Below, in pieces: positions 21,701 to 24,700 of a stretch of DNA of 64,000 nt. The DNA is from Escherichia coli (GTDB lineage Bacteria; Pseudomonadota; Gammaproteobacteria; Enterobacterales; Enterobacteriaceae). The stretch lies in NCBI RefSeq assembly GCF_002854065.1, contig NZ_CP024147.1, one strand, 5' to 3'. Numbering within the stretch: position 1 is the stretch's first letter; every line of letters starts with the position of its first letter. The position numbers are program-made.

Positions 21701-24700
21701 TCTACGCGGCTGAAAATTGATGACGATGCCCTCGCTCGCCTGGTTTCCTGTGCATGGCCTGGCAACGATTTTGAACTTTACAGCGTCATCGAGAATCTTG
21801 CTCTGAGTAGTGATAATGGGCGCATTCGCGTCAGTGATTTGCCGGAACATCTGTTTACCGAGCAGGCGACAGATGATGTCAGCGCCACACGCCTTTCCAC
21901 CAGTCTGTCATTTGCGGAAGTTGAAAAAGAGGCAATTATTAACGCAGCCCAGGTCACAGGCGGTCGCATTCAGGAAATGTCGGCTTTACTTGGAATCGGC
22001 CGCACTACGCTGTGGCGGAAAATGAAGCAACATGGCATTGATGCAGGGCAGTTTAAGCGCCGGGTATGAAAGACAGAGACGATTTCTGATACATCAGAGT
22101 GATCTATATTTCATTCCGGCGCACGCTAACATTTTTCAGCATCGTTTAAGGGCTTGTCTACCCCGTACTTAAAAGCTGAAGTGATATCCTCCGTTGACTT
22201 GCTTCTGATCAAAGAGGTTACCCTGCGTGTAATCCGCTTCGAGGTAGAATGTGTGCTGTTTGTTATACTGTGCACTGACTCCCACGCCGTTATTCCAGCC
22301 ATTACCTTTGAAACTGTACTTCTCCCGGGAGTTATTCAACTGATATTCTGTATCCCCTGAAAACTCGCGGATAGCGCCAGTCTTCACATAGATATTCAGC
22401 TGGCTGTTGCCTGGGTAATGACTCCAACTTATTGATAGTGTTTTATGTTCAGATAATGCCCGATGACTTTGTCATGCAGCTCCACCGATTTTGAGAACGA
22501 CAGCGACTTCCGTCCCAGCCGTGCCAGGTGCTGCCTCAGATTCAGGTTATGCCGCTCAATTCGCTGCGTATATCGCTTGCTGATTACGTGCAGCTTTCCC
22601 TTCAGGCGGGATTCATACAGCGGCCAGCCATCCGTCATCCATATCACCACGTCAAAGGGTGACAGCAGGCTCATAAGACGCCCCAGCGTCGCCATAGTGC
22701 GTTCACCGAATACGTGCGCAACAACCGTCTTCCGGAGCCTGTCATACGCGTAAAACAGCCAGCGCTGGCGCGATTTAGCCCCGACGTATCCCCACTGTTC
22801 GTCCATTTCCGCGCAGACGATGACGTCACTGCCCGGCTGTATGCGCGAGGTTACCGACTGCGGCCTGAGTTTTTTAAATGGCGGAAAATCGTGTTGAGGC
22901 CAACGCCCATAATGCGGGCGGTTGCCCGGCATCCAACGCCATTCATGGCCATATCAATGATTTTCTGGTGCATACCGGGTTGAGAAGCGGTGTAAGTGAA
23001 CTGCAGTTGCCATGTTTTACGGCAGTGAGAGCAGAGATAGCGCTGATGTCCGGCAGTGCTTTTGCCGTTACGCACCACCCCGTCAGTAGCTGAACAGGAG
23101 GGACAGCTGATAGAAACAGAAGCCACTGGAGCACCTCAAAAACACCATCATACACTAAATCAGTAAGTTGGCAGCATCACCCATTTTTGCATTACTAATA
23201 AGAAAAAGCAAAAAACATCGATATTCATTTTTGATCAATGATTTTTCTGGCATATCGTTATTATCGTGCTATTGGTTATCATTTTCATCTTGCCAGGATC
23301 GCACGTAATCTCATTATTCGGGGACTTTATCTGCGGGATATTACCCTTCAGGTAAGTCCTTTTCTCGCCAGCATATTGGAGCGTGATCAATATTGATCAG
23401 CTGTGAAGGGGGTGATGTGTAGTGGAACAAAAACTTACGTTATATCACTACTAATGAGATATCCGTCATCTGAACACTGATGTCTTTAATTATTCTGGTG
23501 GTTCACTGTAGGCAATAAGCACAAAAGTGTAGGATGTTACAAGAATGATTAGGACTCGGTGAAATGAAAAATCCACGCAATTGCGTGGATTTTATATACT
23601 TTTGCGCTCTTCATGAGATTTAGCGAAACCTCATGAGACAACAAATTAATTAGACGTTGAACAGGAAGTTCATCACATCGCCATCTTTAACGATGTAATC
23701 TTTACCTTCTGCACGCATTTTGCCTGCTTCTTTCGCGCCTTGTTCACCTTTGTAATTGATGAAATCTTCAAACGAGATGGTTTGTGCACGGATAAAGCCT
23801 TTTTCAAAATCAGTATGGATTTTGCCCGCTGCCTGCGGCGCGGTTGCTCCAACCGGAATGGTCCATGCACGCACTTCTTTCACCCCAGCGGTGAAGTAAG
23901 TTTGCAGGTTCAGCAGCTTATAACCGGCACGGATCACACGGTTCAGGCCCGGCTCTTCCAGCCCAAGCTCCTGCATAAACTCGTCACGTTCTTCGTCGTC
24001 CAGTTCGGCAATGTCTGCTTCAACAGCAGCACAAACCGGAACCACAACAGAACCTTCTTTCGCCGCGATTTCACGCACCTGGTCAAGATATGGGTTGTTT
24101 TCAAAACCGTCTTCGTTGACGTTGGCGATGTACATTGTTGGTTTCAGCGTCAGGAAGCTCAGGTAACGAATAGCCGCTTTCTCTTCAGCGCTTAAATCCA
24201 GCGCGCGCAGCATACCTGCGTTTTCCAGCTGGGGCAGGCATTTTTCCAGGACCGCCAGCTCAGCTTTCGCGTCTTTATCGCCACCTTTGGCTTTCTTCTG
24301 TACGCGATGAATCGCACGTTCGCAGGTGTCGAGGTCTGCCAGCGCCAGTTCGGTGTTGATAACTTCAATATCGTCAGCCGGGTTAACTTTGCCGGAAACG
24401 TGAATGATGTTGTCATTTTCAAAGCAGCGAACAACGTGACCGATCGCTTCGGTTTCACGGATGTTGGTCAGGAACTGGTTACCCAGACCTTCGCCTTTCG
24501 ATGCGCCTTTTACCAGACCGGCGATATCGACAAATTCCATGGTCGTGGGAAGCGTACGTTGCGGTTTTACGATTTCAGCCAGTTGATCCAGGCGAGGATC
24601 AGGCATTGGTACGACGCCTGTGTTCGGCTCAATGGTGCAGAATGGAAAGTTGGCCGCTTCAATACCGGCTTTGGTCAGCGCGTTGAACAGGGTAGATTTC

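Follow-up and report, generated by a model that had tools for sequence, protein, structure and literature searches.

The Escherichia coli sequence analysed here (a 64,000-nucleotide stretch of contig NZ_CP024147.1, hereafter the window) carries an IS1 element that lacks a target-site duplication (TSD) and is joined directly to the last codons of the autotransporter gene ycgV. This structure probably arose in two stages: IS1 would first have inserted upstream of ycgV, at a hot spot rich in AT, and a transposase-mediated adjacent deletion would then have proceeded from the IRR end of the element. An IS1-mediated adjacent deletion, rather than a simple insertion, had been proposed by a sequence-only reading, and is now supported by a 3,014-bp gap relative to intact loci, by the precursor type of insertion in strain EC190486 and by a nested series of deletions in related strains; recombination between two IS1 copies, which is less likely, would leave the same scar. 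The type of event has long been known, offers nothing new mechanistically and is biologically ordinary.

The IS1 element, its flanks and the ycgV remnant

The window IS1 is complete and exactly 768 bp long, and has at its ends imperfect inverted repeats of about 23 bp (GGTGATGCTGCC... / GGTAATGACTCC...; Table 1). It is oriented with IRR next to the ycgV remnant and IRL next to the spacer on the ychF side. The IRL sequence GGTGATGCTGCCAACTTACTGAT has one match in the 64-kb window, with 0 mismatches, where 0 are expected by chance. As a whole, the element shares 99.9% identity with IS1B copies annotated in RefSeq. Both insA and insB' match the NCBIfam IS1 transposase profile NF033558 (profile length, 199), and the A6C motif for the -1 frameshift that yields InsAB' transposase can be read in the element, suggesting that insB' is expressed as InsAB' via a -1 frameshift at TTTAAAAAAC. 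Because the insA and insB' frames are open and the frameshift motif is present, the window IS1 looks functional and is potentially active. An A instead of G at IS1 position 559 (window 22972) results in the InsA substitution T52M, which is unique among the IS1 copies compared.

Table 1. Features of the window around IS1, and further IS1-related sites in the upstream spacer (positions marked ref are those of the intact PapM-32-1 locus)
Feature	Position	Strand	Description
dhaR	20141-22069	+	Left-hand neighbour, intact and convergent with ycgV; 100% identity with strain 100416
ycgV remnant	22169-22413	-	245 bp: 80 sense codons, stop codon and 2 nt
IS1 (IS1B-like)	22414-23181	-	Transposase genes on minus strand
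IS1 inverted-repeat arms	22412-22436 and 23159-23183		Found by repeat search
IRR	22414-22436	+	Left end of IS1, GGTAATGACTCC; variable junction, taken as deletion-forming
insB' frame	22429-22932	-	167 aa, open; NF033558 profile positions 76-199
insA	22851-23126	-	91 aa, open; NF033558 profile positions 1-81
Frameshift motif TTTAAAAAAC	22869-22878	-	Read from the sequence
IRL	23159-23181	-	Right end of IS1, reverse complement of GGTGATGCTGCCAACTTACTGAT; fixed "anchor" junction
CATTTTTG	23182-23189	+	Presumed surviving right-hand copy of the original 8-bp target duplication; apparent IS1 hot spot
Distal ycgV-ychF spacer	23182-23649		-374 to -841, counted from the ycgV ATG
ychF terminator-like hairpin	23568-23593		Kept in the spacer
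ychF	23650-24741	-	Intact right neighbour
Further IS1 target TATCTGCA	ref 5974-5981		CUWW10
Further IS1 target TGCATAACA	ref 5978-5986		Strain 510016, opposite orientation
Further IS1 target AACAAAAAC	ref 5983-5991		PK8217
Junction to class 1 integron/IS26 region	ref 5973		GN4741

IS1 generates TSDs of 8 or 9 bp, and its replicative transposition within the chromosome has been observed (PMC12428005). The 9-bp flanks of the window IS1 are TGTTGCCTG on the left (22405-22413) and CATTTTTGC on the right (23182-23190), which have the same base at 2 of 9 positions; among direct repeats in the window, none was found to bracket IS1. The 8- or 9-bp duplication that marks a simple insertion is therefore missing, and a cryptic or degenerate TSD is ruled out. 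The element, its coordinates, its flanks and the lack of a repeat had all been described correctly from the sequence. When a TSD is absent, common causes are an adjacent deletion and recombination between IS copies (PMC11708052).

The intact locus of E. coli PapM-32-1 (L004), in which ycgV occupies positions 2742-5627 and encodes 961 aa, serves as the coordinate reference (ref). Alignment to this intact locus, as the sequence-only reading had advised, places the deletion endpoints at ref 2986, where the left flank of IS1 ends, and at ref 6001, where the right flank begins. The two flanks lie on the same strand and are collinear. As collinear flanks are separated by 3,014 bp in intact loci, IS1 marks a deletion rather than a simple insertion. 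The segment missing from the window (ref 2987-6000) takes in 91.5% of ycgV (2,641 bp) as well as the 373 bp directly upstream of the start codon, and includes the ycgV promoter region. The window shows the arrangement expected of an IS-promoted adjacent deletion: one complete IS, no TSD, and flanks whose order and orientation are those of the locus before deletion.

The sequence on the right of IS1 (23182-23649), suspected of being the upstream region of ycgV, does belong to the spacer upstream of ycgV: identity with ref 6001-6300 is 100% over the first 300 bp, and the full stretch aligns at 99.8%. No Rfam match to an RNA gene was found across window positions 21500-24500. In a comparison with K-12 MG1655, window positions 23182-23362 did not align at default stringency; sensitive blastn aligned 23182-23299 to positions 9328-9445 of the MG1655 locus (L003 coordinates). 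The junction corresponds to position 9328 of that locus, 375 bp upstream of ycgV. The idea that 23182-23362 has no K-12 counterpart is thus ruled out, the apparent gap being a 63-66-bp indel polymorphism of the spacer. On its right, the spacer is followed by ychF, pth and ychH, all intact and ordered as in K-12.

The ycgV remnant maps to ref 2742-2986 and corresponds to YcgV residues about 881-961. It matches positions 352-432 of the 432-position autotransporter beta-barrel model TIGR01414 (E = 7e-15); the match indicates homology to the barrel domain, of which the last 80 residues are left, making the barrel incomplete. This match, together with tblastn, bears out the earlier view that only about the last 80 codons of ycgV remain, fused to the IS1 end. 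Of YcgV, everything up to residue about 880 is gone, as are the 373 bp upstream of the gene. The remnant therefore lacks a start codon as well as the signal peptide, the passenger domain and the promoter of its own that a functional gene would have. When the window was searched by tblastn with intact L004 YcgV, the remnant segment was the sole match. Hence neither of the two observations that had been named as fatal to the deletion hypothesis, a cryptic TSD or a second ycgV-like sequence, was made within the 64 kb.

The window carries ycgV as a null allele. The product of the gene is an autotransporter adhesin of group 4, with a reported link to biofilm formation (PMC9289746), and the strain is accordingly without one of its biofilm-associated adhesins of the autotransporter type. 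The gene is frameshifted or truncated in some other E. coli too (e.g., frameshifted in IAI1). The 72-aa open reading frame of the remnant is not on record as a called gene. In annotation, 22169-22413 should be given as a ycgV pseudogene remnant, not as a gene, and the IS1 should be flagged as a deletion scar.

Strains sharing the right IS1 junction

The arrangement of the window, including its left junction, is absent from 5,426 complete E. coli genomes, and a search of metagenome contigs with an exact 30-mer gave no match to the left junction. The right junction is found elsewhere. In EC190486 (L012, NZ_CP143092.1), IS1 has the same orientation and an identical right junction, and is a simple insertion with both copies of the 8-bp TSD CATTTTTG (ref 6001-6008) next to an intact ycgV. 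This insertion resembles that of the window in its target nucleotide, its orientation and its IS1B-type element (3 nt different), but differs in retaining both TSD copies and intact ycgV and in having a spacer allele without the 66-bp segment present in the window.

Three further strains carry the same right junction without a TSD. In Ecol_AZ147 (L010), the left junction is at ref 5732, and 268 bp of DNA upstream of ycgV and the left TSD copy have been lost, with ycgV itself intact. In 100416 (L001, NZ_CM128593.1) and CUWW06 (L006, NZ_CP182139.1), the left junction is at ref 3191, inside ycgV, and reads GCTCAATCC+GGTAATG in the 100416 type. These two strains are the closest relatives of the window, being 99.9-100% identical to it in dhaR, ychF and pth. 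Their IS1 differs from that of the window at 1 nt and has the same orientation; their ycgV remnant is about 450 bp (annotated as a pseudogene CDS of 462 bp), whereas that of the window is 245 bp, the window having lost 205 bp more of ycgV.

Among the TSD-less derivatives, the IRL junction is therefore constant and the IRR junction lies at ref 5732, 3191 or 2986. Judged from the aligned sequences, the arrangements form a nested, one-sided deletion series anchored at IRL, as is expected of IS-promoted adjacent deletions: one junction is that of a precursor-type simple insertion, as in EC190486, and the other varies among derivatives. Because their flanks are nearly identical and their IS1 copies differ by 1 nt, the anchor IS1 elements of the window, 100416 and CUWW06 are likely to be of common descent. 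Sharing the right junction alone is no proof of shared ancestry, because the site is a hot spot that appears to have been struck independently several times. The modest value of the locus is in providing a clean natural precursor and a nested deletion series at one IS1 anchor.

Probable adjacent deletion and rival explanations

The probable course of events would begin with a simple IS1 insertion 373 bp upstream of ycgV into the 8-bp target CATTTTTG, with IRL towards ychF. IS1 transposase would then act on the ends of the element, and intramolecular (replicative) transposition into a target within ycgV would result in loss of the DNA between the IRR end and that target, namely the left TSD copy, the 373 bp upstream of the gene and 2,641 bp of coding sequence. 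The terminal G of IS1 would thereby be joined precisely to ycgV codon about 881, and the original IRL junction and its TSD copy (CATTTTTG, 23182-23189) would remain unchanged. The deletion might have occurred in one step from the simple insertion, or in two via an intermediate like 100416/CUWW06 that kept 205 bp more of ycgV. Such a course would leave ycgV null, and dhaR, ychF and the ychF terminator intact.

A simple-insertion ancestor on the spacer allele of the window itself would be marked by the junction GCGCCATTTTTG+GGTAATGACTCC; none was found, the EC190486 insertion being on the allele without the 66-bp segment. A simple IS1 insertion at the left site of the window was likewise found in 0 of the 5,426 complete E. 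coli genomes, using a chimeric probe at 80% coverage or more.

Adjacent deletions promoted by IS1 in the gal region were reportedly described by Reif and Saedler in 1975, and intramolecular transposition of IS1 is said to have been studied by Turlan and Chandler in 1995. The window resembles the classical IS1 adjacent deletions in that one resident IS1 is kept, one junction is fixed and no TSD is present, and in that the deleted segment begins precisely at the opposite end of IS1 and reaches to a variable extent into neighbouring genes. The classical cases were selected in the laboratory, and their dependence on IS1 was shown genetically, whereas the window carries a natural allele, for which we infer transposase dependence. 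The IS150 "IS-del" events of the Lenski long-term lines likewise have TSD-less IS elements at deletion edges and were classed as adjacent deletions or IS-IS recombination (PMC11708052). IS150 in those lines belongs to the IS3 family, and the events are time-resolved in the experiment; the element in the window is IS1, and the order of events would be that reconstructed from relatives.

The window junction lies exactly at the terminal nucleotide of IS1, and the ycgV sequence just past the breakpoint is C-GGTGATG, which resembles the IS1 terminus. A microhomology (slipped-strand) deletion between this ycgV GGTGATG and the GGTAATG at the IS1 end of a 100416-like ancestor predicts GCCTGCGGTAATG, and the sequence observed is GCCTGGGTAATG. 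This route is rejected because its predicted product keeps an extra C that is missing from the window, a difference of one base.

Recombination between two IS1 copies is the alternative that deserves most consideration, and is unlikely rather than negligible. A second IS1 in direct orientation would have inserted in ycgV at the target TGTTGCCTG (ref 2978-2986), and RecA-dependent recombination with the hot-spot IS1 would have removed 3 kb and one IS1 copy. The scar would be identical, consisting of one IS1 flanked by half of each TSD, and IS-IS recombination is a frequent cause of missing TSDs (PMC11708052). IS1 insertions within or next to ycgV are frequent in other strains, and the 5' region of the gene carries IS1 at about ref 5466 in B19429 and at ref 5510 in YZ22MPE54. 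However, this process requires two events per deletion, and hence three extra insertions for the three nested endpoints. Moreover, IS1 occupies the left site of the window in none of the 5,426 genomes, be it in the arrangement seen in the window or as a simple insertion, and no locus compared has two direct IS1 copies bracketing ycgV. The lack of such intermediates is weak counter-evidence, because they would be short-lived and unstable. The junction GCATCACC+TGTTGCCTGCGGTGATG would be the mark of a second IS1 inside ycgV.

It is very improbable that the anchor is the reverse of that proposed, with the left junction in ycgV as the first site of IS1 and IRL as the end from which an adjacent deletion then ran rightwards into the CATTTTTG hot spot. 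The right endpoint is a demonstrated preferred target of IS1 and could be favoured as an intramolecular target. Yet a simple insertion is known at the right site and none at the left, and the near-identical 100416 and CUWW06 have the right junction, not the left, in common with the window. Because sibling strains share the right junction in this manner, a reversed anchor is unparsimonious: IS1 would have had to enter ycgV twice independently, and both deletions would have had to end at one and the same nucleotide.

Collapse of two direct IS1 copies bracketing ycgV into one during assembly has hardly any probability: such errors are known to occur at repeats, of which IS1 is a multicopy example, and the left junction of the window occurs in no other assembly or metagenome searched, but the window is contiguous for 64 kb through IS1, and collapse is unlikely because independent complete assemblies (100416, CUWW06 and Ecol_AZ147) show the same type of TSD-less IS1 at the anchor.

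The IS1 hot spot upstream of ycgV

An adjacent deletion anchored at IRL would place the original insertion at a site that IS1 has used repeatedly. CATTTTTG flanks IS1 on both sides in EC190486, in isolate CM194533 and in EA7; the EC190486 element is an IS1B, that of CM194533 is a divergent copy (32 nt different) and that of EA7 points the other way. A fourth genome, SL124, likewise matched the opposite-orientation probe in a single piece, as judged by the probe. Comparison of these insertions points to CATTTTTG as a nucleotide-precise IS1 hot spot, with at least three independent events in both orientations. Across at least 80% of its length, the junction probe matched 12 genomes in the orientation of the window; the opposite-orientation probe matched 6 genomes.

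Across the locus, GC content is lowest (0.29) at the anchor site, which lies within an AT-rich stretch of roughly 35 bp. Three further IS1 targets fall within 35 bp, and a junction to a class 1 integron/IS26 region is located nearby in GN4741 (Table 1). Such an exact-site hot spot could serve as a natural target for studying the target choice of IS1. The left target, C-GGTGATG, looks like the IS1 terminus, which may be a sign that intramolecular transposition is biased towards sequences similar to the ends of the element.

Deletions on the dhaR side in the strains examined remove ycgV, and in one strain the whole treA-dhaKLM-dhaR-ycgV block is lost; the IS1 in that strain is inside the 5' region of ycgV, not at the hot spot. 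On balance, these observations slightly favour the view that the hot spot (about 373 bp upstream of ycgV) and the IS1 copies in the upstream and 5' regions seed recurrent deletions towards dhaR, so that loss of ycgV would be mutationally favoured and recurrent rather than a rare accident. Of three publications naming both ycgV and IS1, the two listed deal with other topics, as far as their titles and abstracts indicate. A far larger IS1-bounded deletion, extending from ycgY to ycgV, is present in YZ22MPE54.

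An IS1 hot spot upstream of ycgV

Position and extent of the features in the window and at the intact ycgV locus of PapM-32-1 (reference)
Feature	Window	Reference (L004)
8-bp IS1 target, CATTTTTG	23182-23189	6001-6008
63-66-bp segment of the ycgV-ychF spacer	23297-23362	6116-6181

The 8-bp target CATTTTTG, which coincides with the GC minimum of the locus, is a nucleotide-precise hot spot for IS1, with at least three independent events at the identical 8 bp. Its independent occupants include one IS1B, one IS1 diverging by 32 nt and one IS1 in the opposite orientation. Four further IS1 targets or junctions lie inside the 35 bp to the left of CATTTTTG (relatives; loci L008 and L012-L017). 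Among 5,426 complete E. coli genomes, 12 match a junction probe oriented as in the window over 80% or more of its length, and 6 match the probe for the opposite orientation.

Other IS1-bounded rearrangements at the locus

Two strains carry further IS1-bounded rearrangements at the ycgV locus. In YZ22MPE54 (NZ_CP139337.1; 3535-5000 of locus L011), ycgY is linked through IS1 to the 5' end of ycgV (reference position 5510), and none of treA, dhaMLK and dhaR is annotated between the two. In GN4741 (NZ_CM177112.1; 1-4770 of locus L008), a class 1 integron (dfrA17-aadA5-qacEdelta1-sul1), IS26 and an IS4 fragment adjoin the IS1 located beside ychF. Another rearrangement seeded at the IS1 hot spot is that of isolate CM194533 (NZ_CM194533.1; 4353-6068 of locus L013), in which the ycgV-ychF spacer contains two IS1 copies in direct orientation, separated by 180 bp, and ychF is replaced by foreign DNA (ISSen4 and hypothetical genes) past the second copy.

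Sequence at the left breakpoint and the window's IS1 copy

The ycgV sequence directly past the left breakpoint is C-GGTGATG (window 22405-22420, compared with 5790-5808 of the strain 100416 locus and 6325-6340 of the MG1655 locus). GGTGATG is identical to the first 7 nt of IS1 IRL, matches IRR at 6 of 7 positions, and has the orientation of the IS1 end now present there, shifted by one base. The probability of such likeness by chance is roughly estimated at 1e-3, and no likeness to an IS1 end was seen at the other two left junctions of the relatives. The likeness reflects either chance or a target bias for end-like sequences.

The window's IS1 has A at IS1 position 559 (window 22972), whereas all seven other IS1 copies compared have G; A at this site changes InsA Thr52 to Met (T52M, ACG to ATG). 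This is the sole difference from the IS1 of the closest relatives, 100416 and CUWW06.

Polymorphism of the ycgV-ychF spacer

The 63-66-bp spacer segment is carried by the window, PapM-32-1 and IAI1, and is missing from MG1655, EC190486, Ecol_AZ147 and others. A 299-bp query that includes this segment (window 23182-23480) is covered to at least 80% in about 2,119 of the 5,426 genomes.
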